Shown here: positions 1,962 through 26,950 of the stretch, piece by piece
How positions within the stretch are numbered: position 1 is the first letter of the stretch
Layout: each line of letters begins with the position of its first letter
Sequence record: PZ386955.1
Length of the DNA: 64,000 nt
Source: a phage
Direction: 5' to 3' (one strand)
Program-made: the position numbers and the translations under genes
The notes under the pieces: generated by a model
Told to the model about the DNA's origin: nothing
Databases searched by the model: none
What the model saw: the letters and a program-made list of their open reading frames with translations, nothing else

Positions 1962-3698
1962 TTAGTTTACCAGTTTATTTATATCTGGTAAAAGATTTAT
2001 TTCACCTAAAAAATCACCTTCACCTTCCTCTAACCAACTCTCATATGCTTGTGCATGATTATAGTTACCATCAAAAGAATCTGCAACAAATTTTTCTACA
2101 GCTTTTCGAGATGTGCCAGCGCCAAATACACCAAGTTTAATACCATTGATCGGTAAAGTGGTACTTGTGGGTACTTTCTCTGTTGCAACACGGTTGATAT
2201 CTATAATCTCCTGTACGGTTGTGTTCCATTGTAAGCATTTAACACAACGGGTATGCGCTACATACAGTAGGTTTCGCTCTGCCTCTTCCAGTCCTACCCA
2301 TTCACCAGTCTTTTTATCATAGTTGGAAGGAAAATCATTAGCAACAATAACCTGATCCCACTCCAAACCTTTAGACTTGTGTGCTGTAGTAAGTGTGACT
2401 TTTGCTGTAGGAGAATTTCTGTGCGTTCTAAGTGTATGTGCTATGGTGTTCGCCTTACCAGAAACTACGATGTTTAACAAGCGTTTAGCATCTGGATCAG
2501 CCTCTGCACACTCAACAAATTCATCCCAGTCTGCGTAAGGTAATACAGTTTCATGTTTTACTTTCTCAATATCTCCTCTACGAAGAGCATTAACACTATC
2601 TACCATAGAGATAAAATCCCTGGTATCTACGTTAATAATAATTTCTTCCCCATCTGCAATACGATCCATTGCCTCCATAAGCAAGGTTAAATTCTTGCGA
2701 AAGATGATAGTGTAAGGTTTTGTATAGTCTACAACATCTGATTTGTAGCTACCTACTACAGTATCAAAGCCTTTACCAACCAAAGGGTGACGCAAAGGTT
2801 CTTTATCGCTTAAAATCATATTGGCAATGTTTGCCACTTTTGGGCCAAAACGGAAGCAAGCAGTTAATGGAAGCTCTGCCCCATATGTAGATGTTTCCTT
2901 CATCATATTTTGGCTTCCACGGAACTGGTAGATGCTCTGATATTCGTCACCCACCACTACTACTTGTTTTGCAGATTTAGCATTTCGCAGAATAGACAAG
3001 AATGCAGGGTTAACATCCTGGAATTCATCACCAAAAATAATATCATAACCAAGATCAGCACCAGACAATTCAAACAATTTTACATAGGTGTCATGCGTCA
3101 TCAAAGTATCTGTGTTAGGATCGATGCGCTCTCGCCACAATTGTTTTGCATACTTAACTACTTCTGTAATTAGTTTGTGTTCGTTAATACCTTTTCTTTT
3201 AATATCTGCAAGATGTACACTAGGAAAATGTTTACGGCTGATAAAAGGATCATCCGAAAATTCAAACTTACCTACGGTTTGTTTGATCATTAAACCAATC
3301 ATAGCACGAGTTAAAAGTGTTTTCCCTCGTTTATCAATAAGATTATTAATCTTAAATTTCTTTGCTATTTCGCTACCTGTACCTGCAACGTTAACATACT
3401 GTCCTTCTGGTCGTGACAGTTTTGCACGTAAACGATGATCCAGGAATTGATAGCAAATAGAATGCAATGTACGGCATTCTACATTTAGTGGCATCTTACG
3501 TCGTGCTTCTTCTGCCATGCTTTTATTGAAAGCTAAGTAAAGAATGCGATCTTCTGTACTGTTAGCCAGCAAATAAAGTGTTGACGTTTTGCCTGATCCA
3601 GATTTAGCTTGGATAGTTAAAAAGCGATGGTCTGGAAAAGCCTCCTTAATAGCTGTTTGCTCTTCTGTTGGAGTGAAGCTCAACTCTTTCTTAGCCAT
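1962..3698 (-). CDS. UvrD/PcrA-like superfamily I helicase (P-loop ATPase)
   Basis: Walker A AKSGSGKTST, motif II FGDEFQD, TLHS motif; start moved to internal ATG (MAKKEL) with RBS AAGAGAGG. Confidence 0.7.
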   Translation of the reverse strand: MAKKELSFTPTEEQTAIKEAFPDHRFLTIQAKSGSGKTSTLYLLANSTEDRILYLAFNKSMAEEARRKMPLNVECRTLHSICYQFLDHRLRAKLSRPEGQYVNVAGTGSEIAKKFKINNLIDKRGKTLLTRAMIGLMIKQTVGKFEFSDDPFISRKHFPSVHLADIKRKGINEHKLITEVVKYAKQLWRERIDPNTDTLMTHDTYVKLFELSGADLGYDIIFGDEFQDVNPAFLSILRNAKSAKQVVVVGDEYQSIYQFRGSQNMMKETSTYGAELPLTACFRFGPKVANIANMILSDKEPLRHPLVGKGFDTVVGSYKSDVVDYTKPYTIIFRKNLTLLMEAMDRIADGEEIIINVDTRDFISMVDSVNALRRGDIEKVKHETVLPYADWDEFVECAEADPDAKRLLNIVVSGKANTIAHTLRTHRNSPTAKVTLTTAHKSKGLEWDQVIVANDFPSNYDKKTGEWVGLEEAERNLLYVAHTRCVKCLQWNTTVQEIIDINRVATEKVPTSTTLPINGIKLGVFGAGTSRKAVEKFVADSFDGNYNHAQAYESWLEEGEGDFLGEINLLPDINKLVN

Positions 3699-7859: not shown

Positions 7860-8288
7860 TTATTCTCCAAATCGAAAATCGTCAATATCATCAAACCATA
7901 CACAATGGCGAGTCCTTTCTTTTTCTGTTGCAGACATTGTTTCAACAGCTTTAGGACTAAGCACAACAGGAATGTAACGAACAGGTCGTTCATAATAGTA
8001 GCCATACTTTTCTGTATTAGCTGCCTCAAAGACTTTACGGCGTTCTTCAAGATCTTCTATGGTGAATCCTACCATATAACCATCATGTTTGCTACCCCAT
8101 CCTTCCTCACTTTCAACAATCGGGATATAAAAGCCGTTACGCGTCCCTGACGCTGGTTTTTCTTGAGCCTGAAGGCAAGCCTCCCATCCTGCTTTAAAGA
8201 CGTTATAGAGCGATTTACGCACGTTATGAGTGCCGCTTTCGCTTGCTGGATAGAGTTCATTAAATTTGTCTTGAATTTGTTGTGTCAT
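7860..8288 (-). CDS. hypothetical protein
   Basis: 142 aa ORF. Confidence 0.55.
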   Translation of the reverse strand: MTQQIQDKFNELYPASESGTHNVRKSLYNVFKAGWEACLQAQEKPASGTRNGFYIPIVESEEGWGSKHDGYMVGFTIEDLEERRKVFEAANTEKYGYYYERPVRYIPVVLSPKAVETMSATEKERTRHCVWFDDIDDFRFGE

Positions 8289-8431
8289 ACTCGCCCCTTA
8301 GTGATTATTTGACCAACTAAACAAATAGCTTGTAGTACAATAAAGAAGTAGCCTAATTTTACACTACCCAATACCCAGAATGCAATGTTTGCAAACAAAC
8401 AAAAAGCAATATTAAGTCTAAAGAATAACAT

Positions 8432-8632
8432 TTAATCCCCTTCATATTTAGGTAAAGGCATATATGCCACAATAGGAGGGTAATCAAAGTGAAAATGATG
8501 GTTCACCACAATAATCTTACCAGACATACTTTTATGCACTTCACAATACCCTTTTTCACCATCTTCCATTACCACCACATACTCACCTAGTGGGATATCG
8601 TATGGATCTTCTACTTTTACCCATTCTGTCAT
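8432..8632 (-). CDS. hypothetical protein
   Basis: 66 aa ORF, RBS GAAGGGGA. Confidence 0.5.
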   Translation of the reverse strand: MTEWVKVEDPYDIPLGEYVVVMEDGEKGYCEVHKSMSGKIIVVNHHFHFDYPPIVAYMPLPKYEGD

Positions 8633-8898
8633 TTTGGAAACACCTCTTGTCCATCTTCATGCATTTGTAGTAAAGTTTCACAGATTTCATACACATCTTG
8701 GTATGTTACAACTGAGAGATCAGAGTCTTGATCTTCGACAAGCATAGCACAAAGAGCTTTAATATCAATACCTTTACAATGTTCCGTAGCTATACGGTAC
8801 ATTTCACCATCCTCCCAAACAATTGGTTGCGGAAGCAAAACGTCTGTACCATCTTCACAAGTTACAATGTAATCTGCAATATTATCACGAATTTTCAT
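8629..8898 (-). CDS. hypothetical protein
   Basis: 89 aa ORF, 4-nt overlap with neighbours. Confidence 0.5.
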   Translation of the reverse strand: MKIRDNIADYIVTCEDGTDVLLPQPIVWEDGEMYRIATEHCKGIDIKALCAMLVEDQDSDLSVVTYQDVYEICETLLQMHEDGQEVFPK

Positions 8899-9152
8899 TG
8901 TACTACCCCCTTAAATCCAGATGTGCTGCCAGTTTTAACTTTTGCTTTAAGATGTTCCAACTCTACCATAGGTGTTGCTACTTGTATAGGATTTTCCTCA
9001 ACCTGATGAATATAATATTCATAATAAGCATACTTACCAATAGAGTGCAGATACTTAATTGCATGTTCAGGCGAATCTGCTTCGACATACCCTAAATCTT
9101 TTGTGGTACGACCTTCGCAATCACCTTCGGTAGTTACATGATAAAGTGTCAT
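8895..9152 (-). CDS. hypothetical protein
   Basis: 85 aa ORF, RBS GAGGAGG. Confidence 0.5.
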   Translation of the reverse strand: MTLYHVTTEGDCEGRTTKDLGYVEADSPEHAIKYLHSIGKYAYYEYYIHQVEENPIQVATPMVELEHLKAKVKTGSTSGFKGVVQ

Positions 9153-9281
9153 AAAACCTCCTCATAGTAGGGTAAAGCCTTAATCAGTTGTTCTGAAGTG
9201 CCATTTTGCACCCACGTAACACCATTGTCAACAGAAACATACCCTTTTTTGTCAATAAATTTACGCAGACAGCCAGTGAAC

Positions 9282-9461
9282 TTATTTTTGTAGATCATTT
9301 CTTCTTTCCTTTTTGATTACAGCCCCATCACTCCCTTGCCAAACTTCCGATCTGAATTCCATCTCAAACCACTCACCACCGCAAAAACGGTTATGTTCAA
9401 CACGTCTATCTTCCTTCATTGCTTCTTTAGCTTCGATAGAAGTTAGTTCGATGTTTTGCAT
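9282..9461 (-). CDS. hypothetical small protein
   Basis: Track ORF 9282..9635 crosses the divergent intergenic region; trimmed to internal ATG (MQNIEL) with RBS AAAGGAGA. Confidence 0.4.
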   Translation of the reverse strand: MQNIELTSIEAKEAMKEDRRVEHNRFCGGEWFEMEFRSEVWQGSDGAVIKKERRNDLQK

Positions 9462-9579
9462 TTGTTTTTCTCCTTTCATTTGGTATGCGCTAATCTTAAC
9501 AAAATAAAAATGTATGTCAATACTTGATTTGAAATTAGTTTCTGGTACTCTGTGGGTATCGTAACAAAAGAGGTTAGAT

Positions 9580-9870
9580 ATGAACATCACACTAGCAACT
9601 AAGAATATTACAGAAACTTTTGATGGTTTTGGCATTATTATTGCTGTTCATGGGCATAACGAAAAATGGTTAGCCTCTTTTGAAGAGGACAAAGAACGCA
9701 ATGTACGTTTGAATGCACCAATCAAAGTTTTACACCAGGTAGGTGAGAATAAGAAACAATGGAGATCATACAAAGAGTGGAACATTACGAACGAGTTAAT
9801 ACACAAACTTGACAAAGTGATAAACATGTTCGACAATGCACCAAGCAGTGCAAAACGTGTTTTACTATAA
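9580..9870 (+). CDS. hypothetical protein
   Basis: 96 aa; first gene of plus block after divergent region. Confidence 0.55.
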   Translation: MNITLATKNITETFDGFGIIIAVHGHNEKWLASFEEDKERNVRLNAPIKVLHQVGENKKQWRSYKEWNITNELIHKLDKVINMFDNAPSSAKRVLL

Positions 9871-9881
9871 AGGAGAGTGAT

Positions 9882-10235
9882 ATGAAAATTGTACACGATG
9901 AAATTCAATTTGAAGAGAGTGATCTTCTTGATCTGGATGTGACACTAAGTAAACTGATCTACAACGCACTTTCTGCATATCGTGCAAAAGTGATAGCCAC
10001 AAACAATGTTAAAATTCCTAGTGGGTTACTTCGTCGGATGTACCCACACGCTAAAGGTGACTATCTACCTTATATGGAAGAACGAGCAGCAGAACACTGG
10101 TTAGAAATTCTTGAAAAAATGGAGTCCTCTTTTAAAGATTCAACTCCACCTGAAGAAGTTAATGAAAAACAACGGCAAGAGCGTTTAGAAGGTCGTATTT
10201 TGTTTGCTAAGTATTTCCATAATTTGTGGAGCTAA
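9882..10235 (+). CDS. hypothetical protein
   Basis: 117 aa, RBS AGGAGAG. Confidence 0.55.
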   Translation: MKIVHDEIQFEESDLLDLDVTLSKLIYNALSAYRAKVIATNNVKIPSGLLRRMYPHAKGDYLPYMEERAAEHWLEILEKMESSFKDSTPPEEVNEKQRQERLEGRILFAKYFHNLWS

Positions 10236-10333
10236 ACATATCTGGTAAAATCACTTATATGTTCTTAGTATACTTGTGTAAAGAAGTTATCTAACAGGTG
10301 TTGAGTGGACTATTAAATTAGGAGGGCTTTAAT

Positions 10334-10672
10334 ATGTTTAGTAAAGAAATGAGAGAAGTAATTGCCACTTTGGTAGTTGATCATGGTGTTGAAGTTGAGC
10401 GTCACGTTTGGAACGATGAACCTCCTTTCTTCGATTTGGCATCACGAGCTAAAAGTCATATGCACCTGCTGGAAGACGGTAATGAGTTTGTTCTCCGTAT
10501 GCGTTATGATCGAGAGTTTCGAATTCCGCTTGACACTGAACCAGATGGTGTAGTAATGTGGTTGGCAGAACATTTCGCATACGATGCACTACATGGAAGA
10601 AGTTTTGGTAATGAGCGTTGGGATGCCATTTGTCGTAAGCATAATATTGAACCAGAGTACGGGAGTATGTAA
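10334..10672 (+). CDS. hypothetical protein
   Basis: 112 aa, RBS AGGAGGG. Confidence 0.55.
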   Translation: MFSKEMREVIATLVVDHGVEVERHVWNDEPPFFDLASRAKSHMHLLEDGNEFVLRMRYDREFRIPLDTEPDGVVMWLAEHFAYDALHGRSFGNERWDAICRKHNIEPEYGSM

Positions 10673-10923
10673 TGTTAAGTATCAAACCTAAAATGATAAC
10701 AGAAGACGAAGCAGACTTTATTTTCAAATGTGGACGTGTATGGAGAGAATTCACAAAAGGAAATGAAGTGGTGGTTGTTGTTGAACACAAGATATCTATC
10801 CAGGATCTGTTTGGACAATATATTGATGTTATTAAATTAGGTATTGACAAGGGTTTAGTTGAGGTGTTAACATTAGATCAAGTTGAAGCAGAGCACCTCG
10901 ATAAAGTGGTGGTTGAATTTTAA
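10672..10923 (+). CDS. hypothetical protein
   Basis: 83 aa, start overlaps upstream stop. Confidence 0.5.
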   Translation: MLSIKPKMITEDEADFIFKCGRVWREFTKGNEVVVVVEHKISIQDLFGQYIDVIKLGIDKGLVEVLTLDQVEAEHLDKVVVEF

Positions 10924-10943
10924 AATACAGACGGGAGAAAGGT

Positions 10944-11117
10944 ATGAGTTTCTTTGTTACAGTATTTATGGCTATCTGGATTGTAGTCTCACTCGTTCTT
11001 TTCCTGGTGGGTTGTCTGGAAGAGATTAAGAAAGCGGTTATTTGCGGTTTCTTTGGCTTTATTATCTCTCCTGCCTGGATGTGGTTCTTCATTATGATTG
11101 GTTTCCTTAAAAGGTAA
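10944..11117 (+). CDS. small membrane protein (57 aa)
   Basis: Not in track; RBS GGGAGAAAGG; hydrophobic throughout. Confidence 0.4.
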   Translation: MSFFVTVFMAIWIVVSLVLFLVGCLEEIKKAVICGFFGFIISPAWMWFFIMIGFLKR

Positions 11118-11131
11118 GTGAGGAATAAAGA

Positions 11132-11569
11132 ATGAGTAAAACAAACGTAATCGCAGATAAAGCAACGGATGTACTTCTGAACATGGTTAACGTCACTATT
11201 CAAACAATGAGTGATGTTGTAGAGTTTGGAAAACAACAAATTCCAGAAGTAATCCATCAATTATTAGTGTGGAAAGCAGTATCCGCAGGTTTATGGCAAC
11301 TTTTTAGTATTTGCTTTATGTTTATTACTTTTATTGCTGTGCGGAACCTCGTAAAAGCAATTAAAGATAAAGAATGCCTGTGGTCACGAGATCGCTATGG
11401 TGAAGTATCTGCTTTACCTATTGTTGGTCTTGTTGTCTGTGCTTTCTTTTTCTTTTTAGGATTTGTTATTTTCTTTTCGAATTTTGATTGGCTAAAAATC
11501 ATTATTGCACCAAAAGTGTATCTGATTGAATTTGCTGCTGATTTAATTCGTTCATCTCAACAAAAATAA
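11132..11569 (+). CDS. putative membrane protein
   Basis: 145 aa with several hydrophobic helices. Confidence 0.55.
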   Translation: MSKTNVIADKATDVLLNMVNVTIQTMSDVVEFGKQQIPEVIHQLLVWKAVSAGLWQLFSICFMFITFIAVRNLVKAIKDKECLWSRDRYGEVSALPIVGLVVCAFFFFLGFVIFFSNFDWLKIIIAPKVYLIEFAADLIRSSQQK

Positions 11570-11580
11570 AAGGGGTTAAA

Positions 11581-13191
11581 ATGAAATACACGATTTATGG
11601 TGATATTGTAAGTGTAAATAAAGATATGGGCGTGGAATCTAACTATCTTCCACCTGGATTCTATACTGTTAGTCGTGATCCCCTTGGCAATTATTTTTTA
11701 AGCCGTGGTAATCTAACAGGTGTACCGGATGTTCTGTATGGTGAAACAGAAAAACGAGCAAATCACGTTATCCGTACATTCCATCGCCGGAGTGCACAAG
11801 GTAAAAATACAGGCTTGCTTCTGACAGGAACTAAGGGTAGTGGTAAAACTATGTTAGCCAAACTCATTAGTCGTGATCTTGTAGAAGAAGGTATTCCAAC
11901 TATTATGGTTACTCAAGCCTACAGTGATGCTAATTTCATTGAACTTATTAGCAAGATCACCGACAAAGCAGTGATTATTTTTGACGAGTTTGATAAAGTA
12001 TATGAGAAGAAACAAGATCAAGAAGCACTTCTCACTTTGTTAGATGGTACTGGCAGTGGTAATAAACTGTTTATTCTAACTAAAAACAGTGGCTTTATCT
12101 CTGAATTCTTTCTAAATCGTCCTAGTCGTGTGTTTTATAATTTTAATTATGATAAAATCTCACTAGAAACTATGATTGACTATTTAGATAAAAACCTGGA
12201 TAACAAAGCACACTTTGATAATTTCCAAAGACTTTGGGATGTAAGTTTAGAGTTGTCCTTTGATGTGATCCAAGGTATAGTAGAAGAACTTAATTTCTAC
12301 CCTGATTTATCCTTTAAAGAATGCATCTCTATGATGGGCGTTTCTTTGGGTGGTGGTAATAAATGGGATACTACAAGTATTAACAATTTTAAACGTGGTA
12401 GCGGTTGTCCACAATGTAAGAGGGAGAGACAAACAATGTCCGACGATCAACATATTGCAGATTTCTTTTCTACAGGGGAATTTAAGGAAGGCACTATCTT
12501 CACCAATACAGGGAAACGTAACAAGCGTGATGCAGTATGGATGGTTGAGTGTCCTGTTTGCTCCCATGATGAATATGTTCAAGCAGGTGTTTGTGATGGT
12601 AAATTTTACTCTGCAGGACATAACCTTAAACAAGGGTATATTCCGTGTCGTTGTGGGAACTATCAGTATACAGAAGACCAGATCACCTATAGGGTAAAAA
12701 AGGAAGTAGAAGGGAAAGGGTATGTCTGGGTAGATTGGATTACCAAACCCTCTTCTATAGGTAAGTTTAAATATCTTTGTCTTGTGCATGGTGAGCAGAT
12801 AGGGAGTGCTCGTAATTTATTAAGCCTCGGTCAAGGTTGTCCACAGTGTGCTGGTCATAATCAACAGCAATTATATATTAATATTGTTAAAGATAATGAT
12901 ATTATAGTTGCTCTTAAGTTTGGTATATCTAAAGATAGCGATAGACGATTAAACGGTCAAAATAGCCGTAATCTGTTTTTTATGGAGCGTATTTGTTTAT
13001 ATGATTTTAGCACAGTGAAACAATGTAGGGCTGCTGAAAGAGCTATAAAGAAAAAATTAAAAACTGGTATTTTAACGGCAAGAGAGTTGAAAGATGGTTA
13101 TACAGAAACAGTAAGTGTTTCTGATTTGGAAAATCTTCAAAAAATTATTACACAATATGGTGGCAAATTAGTATACAGTAAGGAGATGTAA
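11581..13191 (+). CDS. AAA-type P-loop ATPase fused to Zn-ribbon repeats and a GIY-YIG-like (T5orf172-like) C-terminal domain
   Basis: Walker A GTKGSGKT, Walker B IIFDEFD; three Cys motifs (GCPQC, CPVC..C, GCPQC); C-terminus YINIVKD..KFGIS..RRL..GYTE resembles GIY-YIG family (tentative). Confidence 0.6.
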   Translation: MKYTIYGDIVSVNKDMGVESNYLPPGFYTVSRDPLGNYFLSRGNLTGVPDVLYGETEKRANHVIRTFHRRSAQGKNTGLLLTGTKGSGKTMLAKLISRDLVEEGIPTIMVTQAYSDANFIELISKITDKAVIIFDEFDKVYEKKQDQEALLTLLDGTGSGNKLFILTKNSGFISEFFLNRPSRVFYNFNYDKISLETMIDYLDKNLDNKAHFDNFQRLWDVSLELSFDVIQGIVEELNFYPDLSFKECISMMGVSLGGGNKWDTTSINNFKRGSGCPQCKRERQTMSDDQHIADFFSTGEFKEGTIFTNTGKRNKRDAVWMVECPVCSHDEYVQAGVCDGKFYSAGHNLKQGYIPCRCGNYQYTEDQITYRVKKEVEGKGYVWVDWITKPSSIGKFKYLCLVHGEQIGSARNLLSLGQGCPQCAGHNQQQLYINIVKDNDIIVALKFGISKDSDRRLNGQNSRNLFFMERICLYDFSTVKQCRAAERAIKKKLKTGILTARELKDGYTETVSVSDLENLQKIITQYGGKLVYSKEM

Positions 13192-13743
13192 ATGCGGATT
13201 ACTGATAAGTATGTGTTCTTCTTCTCGGCAAAAGATGAATTTAGCAACTGGTATCTATCATCTTTTATTGAACCTTTAGCTCCCAAGTATAATAATTCTA
13301 TTACAAGTTCTGTTGAATTTACTTGTGTGGAACAATATATGATGTGGAGAAAAGCATGTTTGTTTTATGATTACAACATTGCATCTTCTATTTTAACCGG
13401 AGATCTAAGATATACAGGAGAAAAAGAACAGGCATATTATAAGCGACTAGGCAGATTAGTTAAAGATTATGATGAAGATACCTGGGCTTCTTTACGGGAG
13501 AAGATTGTCAAGCGTGGTTTGTATCTTAAATACACACAAAATGAAGATCTCAAAAATAAACTTATAGCTTACGCAGATAAGGAGTTTGTAGAGGCAAGTC
13601 CTTATGATTCTATTTATGGTATCAAAATGGGGATGTGGGATCGGGACGTGGAAAATAAGGATTGTTGGAAAGGACAAAATCTTTTAGGAAAATGGCATAC
13701 AGACCTTGCTGTTTATCTAAAATCACAATCTGATATTTCCTGA
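13192..13743 (+). CDS. NADAR (YbiA-like) domain protein
   Basis: FFFSAKDEFSNWY..VEFTCVEQYMMWRKA..LGRLV..W..GQNLLGKWHTDLA pattern; start overlaps upstream stop (TAAATG). Confidence 0.65.
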   Translation: MRITDKYVFFFSAKDEFSNWYLSSFIEPLAPKYNNSITSSVEFTCVEQYMMWRKACLFYDYNIASSILTGDLRYTGEKEQAYYKRLGRLVKDYDEDTWASLREKIVKRGLYLKYTQNEDLKNKLIAYADKEFVEASPYDSIYGIKMGMWDRDVENKDCWKGQNLLGKWHTDLAVYLKSQSDIS

Positions 13744-13961
13744 TATTTTGAAAATTTTTACTTTTATAAAAAGGGGTGTGGGTTTCATGTACGGAAATCC
13801 ACCCTCTGAATAATATATCCAGAGTAAATATTATTCTGTACTCTGTTAATAAAGTATTTAATTTGTTTGTTGGACTATGGTATCTGATCTTTAAAAGGCA
13901 TACTATCTCTTAACTACTATTTATAACAGAACAGTAAAATCATTTTTATAAAAAGGACAAA

Positions 13962-14165
13962 ATTATTTAAAGTTTTTACAGATTTTTGGATACAAATTTT
14001 GAAAATGAAAAGTTCAAGTTTGGTCAAAATTATTTAAAGTTTTTGTACGTATTTCTATCCAGATTTTGAAAATGAAAACTTCAATTTTTTAAAAATTCCC
14101 CAGTTTATTTAAAGTTTTTTTGCCTTTTTCCGTAGAAAAATCAAAAATGAAAAGTTCAATTTCGT
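13962..14165. repeat. three imperfect ~70-bp direct repeats (iteron-like)
   Basis: ATTTAAAGTTTTT ... TTGAAAATGAAAAGTTCAA repeated at ~13962, ~14029 and ~14105. Confidence 0.6.
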
Positions 14166-14180
14166 GTTTTTATAGGTGTG

Positions 14181-14199
14181 TGTATGATAATCATTCTCA
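14181..14199. promoter_or_regulatory. Fur-box-like motif, copy 1
   Basis: TGATAATCATTCTC resembles Fur consensus GATAATGATAATCATTATC; followed by GAGAATGAGAAT and a TGAGAAtttTTCTCA palindrome. Confidence 0.35.
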
Positions 14200-14505
14200 G
14201 TAAGAGAATGAGAATCGTTAGCAAATGAGAATTTTTCTCATTTAGAGAATAACGCGCAGGGGTGGTGTTTGTCTCGCGCTCCCGTGTCCCCTCGCCATAC
14301 AATAAGAATAGCATAACCAACAACAAAAGCAAGCGATTATTTCTATCTTTACATTTCTTTACAAATTTATTTTAGACGAGCTACCGGCGATCAACCTTCC
14401 AACCAGTAGTGCCCTGGTATGTTAGCCCCGCCTTTACGCCGTGGGGGTGGCGCTTCCTCTTCTGTATGTAAAACAGTATAAGCCCGATCCCTGGGCTTGT
14501 CAAGA

Positions 14506-14772
14506 TTATTTTTTGTTTTCTTGCCAGGATAGGACACCTAACCAAAAATACATGTCGCCCCGCGCCCCTGGCGGGATCTTGCTTTCCCCGCCGCCACTGC
14601 AAGCCCATAGATAACCATTTGCGAACGTATCAAAATGATCTATCTCTTCCACCTTATGATCGCCCAGGTTGAGAACGGTTTCAACCTTTAAGCCCGTTGC
14701 GCTTGCTACCTGGTGCACCGTGCCGCCTTGCCAGCCCAATGAGTGCATAAGGTGTAAAGTAGTATTTGTCAT
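14506..14772 (-). CDS. hypothetical protein in GC-rich island
   Basis: 88 aa minus-strand ORF inside plus-strand region, with its own minus-strand promoter, hairpin GCGCCAACCAGGGCGC and RBS AAAGAAAGGG. Confidence 0.4.
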   Translation of the reverse strand: MTNTTLHLMHSLGWQGGTVHQVASATGLKVETVLNLGDHKVEEIDHFDTFANGYLWACSGGGESKIPPGARGDMYFWLGVLSWQENKK

Positions 14773-14850
14773 GGTATCGCCCTTTCTTTGATGTGCGCCC
14801 TGGTTGGCGCGGTAGAAAGATAATAGCCCTTTCCTTTATAGATAGCAAGC
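14773..14850 (-). promoter_or_regulatory. inverted PeSL-like unit (promoter + stem-loop) for ORF 14506..14772
   Basis: Minus-strand TTGCTA-N17-TATTAT followed by GC hairpin and RBS. Confidence 0.4.
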
Positions 14851-15143
14851 AAAAAAGAAATGAAAAAAGATTAAAAAAGGGGGTTGACGTTCCTCACCTG
14901 GTAGCGTATTATTCATCTTGTCGAGGGGGGCGAGGCACAACGACAATAAACAAAAGGAGGGCGCAATGTAGGACGGGCAAAGGTGAGGATCTCCATAATC
15001 CACCGTCACAATAACATTACTTATAAAAGGTTGATAACGATGATCAAGAAAGAAAACAGCTTGACGGTTGGAACGATTAACGCTATCATTCTAGCCGTTC
15101 CATTTTGGATTGTAGTAGCGGTTATTATCTTTTAAAAATATTC

Positions 15144-15200
15144 TTGACAACGTTTTTTAATCTGATAAGATGTATCACATAGGGCGGCAATAGTGCCGCT
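15144..15200 (+). promoter_or_regulatory. PeSL-type early promoter + 5' stem-loop
   Basis: TTGACA, -10-like hexamer, hairpin GGGCGGCAATAGTGCCGCTC, RBS, ATG at 15224. Confidence 0.6.
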
Positions 15201-15223
15201 CATAACAGAAGAGAGAAATAATC

Positions 15224-15496
15224 ATGGCATCATATAGCGCATCAATGATCGTAGCTGGCATCACTGGTAAACCTATGCGCGGTGGCGGATCTTTCGCTAA
15301 TATTAATATTGATGGGCGTTTATCCCTGGACGCAGCGATCACCGTGGCACGGGAAACATTTAAAAAAGAATGTAATTTCAATAAACAAGATTATCTCGGC
15401 TTCGTTATTGAAAAAACCGCGCGCTTTGTTGATTATAAAAGCCCGAAAATGGTTGATACTACACTAAAAGCGCAAGATGTAGCATTTTTGCTTTAA
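15224..15496 (+). CDS. hypothetical protein
   Basis: 90 aa ORF immediately downstream of PeSL unit. Confidence 0.6.
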   Translation: MASYSASMIVAGITGKPMRGGGSFANINIDGRLSLDAAITVARETFKKECNFNKQDYLGFVIEKTARFVDYKSPKMVDTTLKAQDVAFLL

Positions 15497-25232: not shown

Positions 25233-25490
25233 ACCTCAATAAAGATGATAGCTTTTACCTATCAAAAACGTTCACCGAAAAAAGTGAATAGATCGCGGTA
25301 TCGAGCTAATCAAGGAGCAGATGAACAACCATACCATGAAGATCATAAGGCGCTTACAACGCGTTTTAGACCGCTTGTTTTTAATTTCTCCATGTAACTA
25401 TCTGGCAAAAACAGCCTTTTTCTTGTCTTTCCTCTTAAATAATAATCATTCTCATTTGTAGCTGATTATTTATGCAATAAACTGAATAAT

Positions 25491-25514
25491 GCAATAATGA
25501 TAATCATTCTTAAC
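25491..25514. promoter_or_regulatory. Fur-box-like motif, copy 2
   Basis: AATAATGATAATCATTCTT, 16 of 19 matches to GATAATGATAATCATTATC; partial copy at 25441-25458. Confidence 0.4.
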
Positions 25515-25885
25515 TTAAGACCATCTAACCTATAAAATAATAAGCTATCTAACTAAATTAAAGCTAATTATCTCACCTTTATTTATAACTTACTGTTACT
25601 ATCTCATTGATAACCTTATATTAAACAACAATAACTAATATAAATCATTACCAAGCTAAAGATAAGCTATCTAACCTTTAAAACTATAACTATAATCTAT
25701 CGAATTGTTGCACAAAGTAACTATTAAATTGTTAGTAACATTACTAAATAATTAATATCCTATCTATTTATGATCTAATCTTTACCTTCCTATCTATTAC
25801 CTAAATAATCATTTCATACAATAACTATAACAAGAAATATAATTCGCAAGCGTATCATTAGCAGCCTATGCCGGACACATAGGCG

Positions 25886-26031
25886 GCTAATAATAACGCA
25901 ACTACACACCCCACATAATAACCATCACCGATAGTTATTATTTGTGCTTATGTAGCTTGCAACAATTGCAAGCGCAACAATATACATGGTATATTGTATC
26001 CCTTACATTGTTGCGGTGCGTTATTATTAGC
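25886..26031. repeat. nested inverted repeats / palindromes in non-coding region
   Basis: Perfect 15-nt arms GCTAATAATAACGCA inverted ~110 bp apart; internal palindromes GCTTGCAA-CAA-TTGCAAGC and ACAATATAC-ATG-GTATATTGT. Confidence 0.6.
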
Positions 26032-26360
26032 TAATGTTTAGAACATTGGCTATAATATAAGCTATCCAATAATAATAAGCTATACAATAATAAACATAGT
26101 GAATAATGACCCCCGATGATCATAATGCGCCACCTTCCAGGGGGCGCTATGTGAACACAAAGAAACCTTTCTTGTCAAGAAAAATATTGCCACTATTGCG
26201 CAAAATTATTTATATCTGAATAGATGATTTTTCATACTATTGCCCCCAATACTATCCCTATTTGTTGCCCTAACTATTGTCATTTGTTGAGCCTACTTTC
26301 TTAAAAGCGCAATAAATCAGAATTATCTTGATTTTTAGGGCGTTTTATAGTATAGAAAAT

Positions 26361-26384
26361 ATGCAAATGATAATCATTATCAGC
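26361..26384. promoter_or_regulatory. Fur-box-like motif, copy 3
   Basis: GCAAATGATAATCATTATC, 17 of 19 matches to Fur consensus. Confidence 0.4.
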
Positions 26385-26548
26385 TATCTTCCACGGGTGG
26401 CACTATTTCACGCAGGATCATTTCATTTGGCAAGGTGTATATAGATGTTTAGACTTGCCAAGCCATTGATTTACTTAGAATTTATCTGTTTTGTTGTGAG
26501 TAGTACCTTTCTTGCTCAGAAAATAATCAAAAGTCTTATAAGTCATTG

Positions 26549-26577
26549 AATGATAATGCAAATGATAATTATTCTCA
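26549..26577. promoter_or_regulatory. Fur-box-like motif, copy 4 (tandem half-sites)
   Basis: GATAATGCAAATGATAATTATTCTC. Confidence 0.35.
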
Positions 26578-26950
26578 TTGATATTTGAGGGGGACGGTCG
26601 GCAGAAATCGGGGGGCGCTGAAAATCGCGTTAAGCACCTCTCGCAAGCGAGCAGTATTTTGCGGCAAGTTATTGATATTATTGACTTTACGCTTATGAAA
26701 AGGGGGTGTGTCGAAATAAATCGGGTATACCGGAAAAATTTTGTGGCATAGATATTTATTTGTCTATATTATGTACAAAGGGGTGTGTTAAAAATAATAG
26801 GTATATATAGAATAATTGATAGGGAATACCTATACTAATTCCTATACTAAATCCTTCATTAATGATGTTTCTATGGTGCTGTTCTTGTAATAGATGAAAA
26901 GACGCTGTATGATGTGTGGCATGAAACGTAAATTTATAAAGGAGTCTGAT

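Follow-up and report, generated by a model that had tools for sequence, protein, structure and literature searches.

The primary origin of phage T7 consists of the tandem promoters 1.1A and 1.1B and an AT-rich region, and the T4 origins oriF and oriG combine a promoter and an unwinding element with an R-loop primer. The lambda ori, which has four palindromic iterons and an AT-rich region, is activated by transcription, and ColE1 RNA II belongs to a further transcription-activated origin system. The put RNAs of HK022, located just downstream of early promoters, act in cis and modify the polymerase. Here we analysed 64,000 nucleotides (nt) of phage DNA (record PZ386955.1; hereafter the window) and describe a short element on its minus strand, element 1, which comprises a purine-rich leader and a core (14381..14468). 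Based on comparisons of sequences, we have shown that element 1 is conserved and non-coding, that it has a strong promoter of its own and a hairpin supported by covariation, that it is tied to an array of DNA repeats, and that it has no host homologue and belongs to no known family.

The locus resembles the T7, T4, lambda and ColE1 origins in layout, in that tandem promoters read into three to five palindromic repeats and then into long direct repeats of 23% GC, and in that a structured 5' RNA domain lies upstream of AT-rich DNA, all within a large non-coding gap. There is no sequence similarity to the described origins, no adjacent initiator gene was identified, and the palindromes of the window look like Fur boxes and recur in operator-like positions in a second region. 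Compared by description, element 1 is similar to the HK022 put RNAs in being a two-helix RNA of ~70 nt that lies shortly after an early host-type promoter and lacks a terminator of its own, but one of its helices may form a pseudoknot and most copies are without downstream genes. With ToxI and pseudo-ToxI of phiTE (PMC3475682) it shares the character of a non-coding, pseudoknot-forming RNA in the same phage group, although the pseudoknot of element 1 is only suggested. Unlike pseudo-ToxI, element 1 is a single-copy unit beside a phiTE_079 homologue and shows neither a repeat nor a resemblance in sequence; pseudo-ToxI was rejected as its identity, since it occupies another locus and has another repeat structure. 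In T4-like phages, the PeSL cassettes unite an early promoter and a stem-loop terminator in one short motif and mark points of gene shuffling (PMC4122927, PMC2839356). The promoter of element 1, P1, and the P1 sites of related phages likewise combine a promoter with a probable terminator hairpin, and the genes 5' of P1 differ between genera. However, PeSLs belong to another phage family, differ in sequence and are not followed by a conserved structured RNA. Element 1 is best filed as a new, previously undescribed family among phage-encoded structured small RNAs, in an uncharacterised type of locus.

An initial annotation of the window had marked 14270-15010 as a GC-rich island that might encode small RNAs. 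Using sensitive BLAST against 50,697 phage records, we found matches to this island in 234 records from two subfamilies, 124 of them at a coverage of at least 80% and 110 more in part. The matches in Stephanstirmvirinae cover most of the island. About 100 more distant phages match only positions 97-223 of the query (window 14346-14472), with 82-86% identity and with flanks that do not align. These are Vequintavirinae (Mydovirus, Certrevirus, Seunavirus, Avunavirus and unclassified relatives), the hosts of which are Klebsiella, Cronobacter, Pectobacterium, Proteus, Salmonella and Enterobacter. In the records examined, the matching stretch usually carries no annotation and otherwise spurious "hypothetical proteins". 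It is exactly the sequence that had been noted as structured and free of open reading frames (ORFs) 3' of the second minus-strand promoter. Judged by identity, element 1, a sequence of ~90 nt, is conserved far better than any neighbouring gene; the protein of 279 amino acids encoded on the left of the CR3 locus occurs in Certrevirus alone, and its identity within this genus falls to 50-58%.

No match to the island was obtained in 5,426 E. coli genomes. Screening of 185,579 bacterial genomes with a 21-nt core pattern (19 specified bases) yielded no true bacterial copy; one match is a phAPEC8-like phage contig binned in a metagenome-assembled genome. The other matches were discarded, 11 of them as an unrelated repeat in OW818685 and three as chance. 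OW818685.1 is a metagenome-assembled chromosome of 6 Mb, in which 11 identical repeat ends (...TTGGGCAAAACGGCGAAAAAGCGGGGCTAATCG...) match the core pattern by chance; this repeat appears to be the terminus of an insertion sequence with no relation to the phage RNA. Two pattern scans of IMG/VR recovered rV5-like phages only, and among the matches listed in a metagenome pattern scan, which lay on GC-rich soil contigs, none was real. Rfam 15 gave no match at the gathering threshold in the whole window, none over element 1 at E <= 10 (13700-15300), and none at E <= 5 for copies of types A, B and C in four other loci. ARAGORN found 0 tRNA or tmRNA genes in the window. A covariance model of element 1 scores 144.9 bits at its own site, the sole match in the window. 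In the literature, we found no description of the element 1 RNA or of an origin in these phages.

P1 is a sigma-70-type promoter (TTGACA-N17-TATACT; 14503..14475, minus strand) that agrees with 11 of 12 consensus positions and is the best of the region. Its spacer measures 17 nt instead of the 16 given initially, and transcription would start near 14468. A promoter of the P1 type stands at a near-constant distance upstream of all 34 copies of element 1, second copies included. Inside the P1 spacer, a terminator-like GC-rich hairpin is followed by a U-rich stretch (14480..14498, minus strand). This hairpin is probably the intrinsic terminator of an upstream gene of 88 amino acids, so that terminator and promoter would form a composite. 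By our reading of the aligned copies, the P1 spacers of most other phages also hold a GC-rich hairpin, of differing sequence.

The 34 copies, which come from 31 loci, were aligned on the RNA (minus) strand, to which all coordinates of the parts refer. Each copy shows the same order of sigma-70-type promoter, purine-rich leader of 15-20 nt, stem S1, A-rich linker, P2b/P3 hairpin and GAUCGCCGGUAG. S1 is invariant and consists of CGCC, a loop of 7-8 nt and GGCG (in the window CGCC 14452-14449 with GGCG 14440-14437). A possible pseudoknot helix, S2, would pair CCCCC 14447-14443 with GGGG 14429-14426. The P2b/P3 hairpin has a base of 2 bp, P2b (C14425/U14424 with A14397/G14396), a 2x2 internal loop, a bulged stem, P3 (14421-14414 with 14406-14400), and an apical extension that differs in length between copies. 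At 14392-14381 lies the invariant 3' segment GAUCGCCGGUAG. Downstream of element 1 in the window phage, no terminator or defined 3' end was found.

The helices S1 and P3 were both recovered by RNAalifold. Of 22 sequences, 11 have A:U and 11 have G:C at the P3 pair 53-79, with both states present in Mydovirus, and the whole P3 stem is exchanged for a different complementary sequence in SSBI34, in L139 and in variants of types B and C. Over the 34 copies, 90% of the cells pair, against 24-50% when the partners are slid by 1-3 columns. Double changes were counted in 32 cells, compared with 8.6 +/- 2.4 in shuffles (0 of 500 shuffles reached 32). Both pairs of P2b change on both sides between types, and in P2b/P3 as a whole five pairs have changes on both sides, in at least five sequence types. 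The aligned copies thereby show that the bulged hairpin P2b/P3 is kept by compensatory changes, and that element 1, as a structured non-coding RNA generically should, has compensatory base pairs beyond those due to relatedness. The initial proposal of a small-RNA locus is borne out in this respect, as the ORF-free sequence 3' of the TTGACA/TATACT promoter is conserved and its structure supported by covariation. Among relatives, the apical loop is 6, 8, 9, 10, 11, 12, 13 or 14 nt long, and because of this variation in length (6-14 nt) a coding reading is excluded on either strand. Moreover, the S1 loop and the linker switch jointly, from CCCC with GGGG in type A to CCAA with UUGG in types B and C, a co-change that suggests an H-type pseudoknot.

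In all loci examined, element 1 lies upstream of, and on the same strand as, one ordered array, in which TTTGTAAAGAAnTGTAAAGA (the TGTAAAGA pair) is followed by a second promoter, a second conserved block, three to five palindromes and three AT-rich direct repeats. In the window, the pair TTTGTAAAGAAATGTAAAGA, i.e. two TGTAAAGA units 11 nt apart (14346..14365, minus strand), is unique; it is near-invariant in 29 of the 34 aligned copies and located just upstream of the -35 hexamer of the next promoter. This P2-like promoter (TTGCTT-N16-TATTCT; 14305..14332, minus strand) was recognised from the alignments, being weak in the window and missed by a consensus scan; Vequintavirinae have a better one at its position, TTGCAA-N17-TATATT. 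The second conserved block, element 2 (..GAGACAAACACC..UGC.CG..AUUC; 14250..14299, minus strand), was likewise defined by alignment. It was considered as a second structured RNA and is left as a conserved sequence block, the closing stem being weak and the consensus fold reaching -1.4 kcal/mol.

A motif scan placed three Fur-box-like 7-1-7 palindromes, TGA[G/T]AATnATT[C/A]TCA, at 14185..14240. Across the loci, the palindromes of the array are of the 7-1-7 type AATGAGAATnATTCTCATT and number three to five; CR3 has four, spaced 29-38 bp. The three AT-rich direct repeats of the window, found by repeat search, are ~70 bp long with a GC content of ~23% (13942..14162). Three repeats were likewise found in each of the five other rV5-like loci tested, where they are spaced ~75 and ~66 bp and differ in sequence. 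Repeated sites of a protein-binding type beside an AT-rich region, as in an origin, can be recognised by motif and composition in the window and in five other genera. The GC skew in the window tracks gene orientation.

The Fur box consensus is GATAATGATAATCATTATC, or TGATAATnATTATCA in 7-1-7 form. The palindromes beside the RNA read TGATAATCATTCTCA and TGAGAATTTTTCTCA, but in each half-site the consensus of the phage palindromes shows, as its fourth letter, a G where the Fur box has T (GAGAAT). The window contains a second large AT-rich non-coding region (25400-26890; GC minimum 21.7%), which carries repeats of the ATAAGCTATCTAAC type along with four palindromes resembling Fur boxes, and TGATAATCATTATCA at 26368 in this region is a perfect 7-1-7 Fur core. 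Vequintavirus I29 (ON286975.1) has 13 palindrome matches in 34 kb scanned, compared with 0.85 expected, and nine of the 13 lie in or just beside an intergenic gap of 2.3 kb (region 8261-11371). This region has no nucleotide similarity to the window and the palindrome motif alone in common with it; it also contains a perfect tandem duplication of 594 bp (8895-9788). In Vequintavirus Bas54, an intergenic region of ~2 kb took no insertions in a transposon screen (bioRxiv 10.1101/2025.11.20.689424). The Bas54 region would be the equivalent of the I29 gap, and the link from this region to the locus of the window is suggestive.

Since promoters, binding-site repeats and AT-rich repeats follow one another as in a transcription-activated origin, we tentatively assign the element 1 RNA an origin-linked or local regulatory role, which we regard as quite possible without calling it probable. 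The host RNA polymerase would transcribe element 1 early and to the left, in the direction opposite to the flanking genes, which are on the plus strand both to the left and to the right of the locus. The RNA would fold compactly into S1, possibly an H-type pseudoknot, and the P2b/P3 hairpin, leaving the invariant GAUCGCCGGUAG single-stranded. Without a terminator of their own, the transcripts would continue into the palindromes and the AT-rich block. The RNA, acting in cis or locally, may then provide the structured 5' domain of a transcript by which the origin-like region is activated or regulated. There it might nucleate a protein or stabilise an RNA-DNA hybrid, by our own account the weakest link.

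Several observations weigh against this interpretation. The pseudoknot is based on essentially one switch, from type A to types B and C, and the match of 4 bp between loop and linker is not above chance in any single sequence. S1 never varies and hence offers no test by covariation. Folds of single sequences are no stabler than those of shuffles (z = 0.14 to 1.42), and because these minimum-free-energy z-scores are not significant, the case for structure rests on covariation. We found no transcript or RNA-seq data for this phage group. As to an origin, neither an initiator protein nor a DnaA box nor a mapped start of replication was found in its support. In the second non-coding region of the window, two palindromes lie, by our reading, just downstream of promoter-like hexamers, i.e. 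in operator position, and such an arrangement favours a regulatory over a replication role. Finally, element 1 was not detected in the 92 kb of I29 that were searched, and the RNA would therefore not be indispensable to every region of this kind.

In two phages, cardinal (Justusliebigvirus) and Raoultella phage Ro1 (Mydovirus), element 1 is present in two copies. P1 and a type A copy, cut after GAUCGC, are followed by a Shine-Dalgarno sequence, an ORF of 197 amino acids, a new promoter, a type B copy and the normal 3' flank. The ORF (1749-2342 of the cardinal locus, L040, and 2629-3222 of the Ro1 locus, L041, minus strand) matches HNH homing-endonuclease families (phrog_953, E 2e-81). In P7_Pc (L044, 2477-2793) both copies are kept and a remnant alone lies between them. 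The HNH ORF was inserted right after the core, with a Shine-Dalgarno sequence of its own, and is thus downstream of P1 and the core. Presumably it is transcribed through the core, in which case the core does not terminate transcription. Element 1 is the kind of strongly constrained sequence beside which selfish genes settle.

It is also possible, and we put this slightly more cautiously than the local role itself, that element 1 founds a new class of functional phage RNAs. Such an RNA, a compact domain with a pseudoknot that is transcribed from one of the strongest early promoters, would either sense a small molecule or a protein or seed initiation at the phage origin, and would be important enough to be a target of homing endonucleases and to stay near-invariant in phages of at least eight enterobacterial host genera. 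Phages like rV5, phi92 and phAPEC8 rank with the broad-host-range coliphages that are isolated most frequently for therapy, yet the large non-coding regions of their genomes carry no annotation. A conserved early RNA under a strong promoter could give a handle on the start of replication or on host takeover in these phages, and element 1 may help to explain the large insertion-intolerant intergenic region in a related genus. For genome engineering, element 1, P1 and the Fur-box-like operators are worth protecting or deliberately targeting.

Instead of acting locally, the RNA could be a small RNA that acts in trans, is produced in large amounts at an early stage of infection, and titrates a conserved host or phage protein or serves as a decoy for a defence system; its linkage to the array would then be shared residence only. 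The very strong promoter would suit such a product, and the long invariant single-stranded stretches in phages of E. coli, Klebsiella, Cronobacter, Pectobacterium, Proteus, Salmonella and Erwinia fit a conserved partner. Each copy is an independent unit of promoter and RNA, two of which coexist in some phages, early accessory genes such as that of the NADAR protein lie nearby, and the relative phiTE uses an RNA, pseudo-ToxI, against a defence system. However, the strict synteny with the downstream array over two subfamilies, the lack of a terminator or defined 3' end in the window phage, and the lack of any likeness to known sponge or antitoxin RNAs, of an Rfam match and of ToxI-type repeats lead us to consider a trans-acting RNA unlikely, if a serious competitor.

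The two-copy loci bear on a further explanation, in which element 1 is a cis-regulatory leader, a riboswitch-like or a polymerase-modifying, put-like RNA that controls read-through into downstream sequence, including the homing endonuclease gene where there is one. Element 1 begins 15-20 nt past the transcription start and has no terminator, and in cardinal and Ro1 it forms the 5' leader for an ORF, the Shine-Dalgarno sequence of which lies 25 nt downstream. In addition, CGCC and GGCG allow two mutually exclusive pairings, S1 or a long-range helix with the invariant 3' CGCCGGUAG, and this long-range helix is the minimum-free-energy fold in types B and C; the hairpin within the spacer of the next promoter in Vequintavirinae could, by our reading, be a regulated terminator. 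Yet no gene follows in most phages, the alternative helix lacks covariation support, no riboswitch or leader family matches even at E <= 10, and no ligand is suggested. We therefore judge a leader function to be improbable.

Conservation might also act on the DNA alone, through protein-binding sites or through a hairpin in single-stranded DNA, such as a primosome or initiation signal, in which case the promoter would serve just to open the duplex. DNA-level elements are indeed close by, namely palindromes, direct repeats and, in the position of an UP-element, the TGTAAAGA pair; strand evidence of the G:U type is too sparse to decide, and homing endonucleases recognise DNA, so that the inserted gene is no argument for an RNA. 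This explanation nevertheless appears quite improbable to us, given that every copy, duplicates included, has a promoter at a fixed short distance, that compensatory changes keep a hairpin with a bulge and an internal loop, as is typical of RNA, and that the length of the apical extension is variable in the manner of RNA hairpins.

The initial annotation had also noted the composition of the locus. The stretch 14270-15010 has 47.8% GC, far beyond the composition variance of the window (mean 37.2%, standard deviation 2.5%, in windows of 741 bp), so that the reported shift is real. A value this high is attained by just 0.05% of 741-bp windows, which makes the stretch the most GC-rich of the 64 kb at this scale; the exact 741-bp maximum begins at 14251. 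Directly to the left, at 13820-14200, lies a GC trough of 22-23%. The number of promoter-like sites in 13600-15400 is 10, compared with 4.8 +/- 2.2 in shuffles. The high GC of the patch arises from GC-rich RNA helices and promoter hairpins. By its matches, the window is a Justusliebigvirus/Phapecoctavirus-like coliphage: 1.1 kb around the locus are 96-98% identical to the Escherichia phages Eryne, outra, alia and others, and the phages matched over this 1.1 kb belong to Stephanstirmvirinae (Justusliebigvirus, Phapecoctavirus), myoviruses of 145-150 kb. The distribution among phages identifies the patch as the GC-rich core of an ancestral non-coding control region common to Stephanstirmvirinae and most Vequintavirinae.

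That the patch is instead a horizontally acquired GC-rich insert carrying a toxin-antitoxin-like module of small protein and small RNA, as initially suggested, would suit the sharp GC shift and the lone small minus-strand ORF beside a structured RNA. It is very improbable indeed, because the patch occupies the same place in the 234 phage records of two subfamilies, has no homologue in E. coli (5,426 genomes) and no true copy of its 21-nt core pattern in 185,579 bacterial genomes, contains no tandem RNA repeats, and includes an ORF that lacks a match to defence, toxin or antitoxin families (PADLOC, Pfam, NCBIfam) and that, in many phages with the RNA, is lacking or gives way to another. A toxin-antitoxin module of type III, with tandem RNA units of ~34-45 nt, was rejected, as 14270-14520 holds no tandem repeat. 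The only repeats near element 1 are the AT-rich units of ~70 bp, ~200 bp away, whose sequence is not conserved between the subfamilies. Nor was the adjacent toxin gene of such a module, an endoribonuclease of the ToxN/AbiQ family, recognised in the 88-amino-acid ORF by PADLOC, Pfam or NCBIfam.

The individual elements named in the initial annotation were all found, with coordinates off by at most 1-2 nt. The minus-strand ORF of 88 amino acids (14506..14772) has its own promoter-like site, TTGCTA-N17-TATTAT (14848..14820, minus strand), which agrees with 9 of 12 consensus positions. It encodes a small all-alpha phage protein (phrog_19316, E 2e-59). This family, with 21 clusters, occurs in phages only, shows identities down to 41% and conserves the N-terminal motif LGWQGGTVHQVAxxTGL. 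The AlphaFold2 model is all-alpha with a predicted local distance difference test score (pLDDT) of 93.9, and the model gave no fold match. The ORF is absent in CR3, and unrelated small ORFs take its place in Mydovirus and Seunavirus. As it is missing or replaced in phages keeping the RNA, it is not an obligatory partner of element 1. On this evidence, the protein family is genuine and confined to phages, but it is not universal.

The second minus-strand promoter, P1, and the plus-strand promoter TTGACG-N17-TATTAT (14884..14912; 10 of 12 positions) are both present. The latter, an early promoter for rightward genes and divergent from the promoter of the 88-amino-acid ORF, is invariant in eight relatives. 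The view that the plus-strand promoter is a transcription signal without a gene is not supported; in phAPEC8 it directly precedes a gene. In the window it is followed by an ATG-TAG (14966..14971, plus strand) behind a strong Shine-Dalgarno sequence, AAGGAGG-N6. In cardinal and in loci L020 and L019 the aligned sequence is ATG CAG GAC GGG CAA AGG TGA, a mini-ORF of six codons, and the C-to-T change of CAG to TAG in the window identifies the ATG-TAG, by alignment, as the remnant of such a mutated mini-ORF. The first plausible coding sequence 3' of this promoter is an ORF for a hydrophobic peptide of 31 amino acids (15040..15135, plus strand), which has no family match.

Early host-type promoters with a conserved hairpin, ACATAGGGCGGCAATAGTGCCGCTCA, at the start of the transcript lie at 15144-15210 of the window (plus strand) and at 3163-3182 and 3407-3445 of phAPEC8 (L011). 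The authors of the phAPEC8 genome annotated this hairpin motif as a phage promoter with PHIRE. A weak Rfam match (L2-leader) at 15172-15218 was discarded, being the 5' hairpin ACATAGGGCGGCAATAGTGCCGCTCA of this neighbouring early transcript.

Five records labelled as Campylobacter jejuni phages (e.g. MG065639.1, 'Campylobacter phage A150', 146 kb) have ~97% identity to this coliphage locus, which looks like mislabelling or contamination. On its left, the non-coding region adjoins the gene of a NADAR-domain protein (13192-13743, plus strand; E 2.5e-36); NADAR proteins are linked with the reversal of ADP-ribosylation. The preceding gene (11581-13191, plus strand) is a single ORF of 536 amino acids, in which an AAA ATPase (phrog_2376, residues 1-302) is continued by the C-terminal portion of an endonuclease of the CapR/T5orf172 type (phrog_681). 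ATPase and endonuclease are two genes in alia and Eryne, and in the window they seem to have been fused by a deletion.

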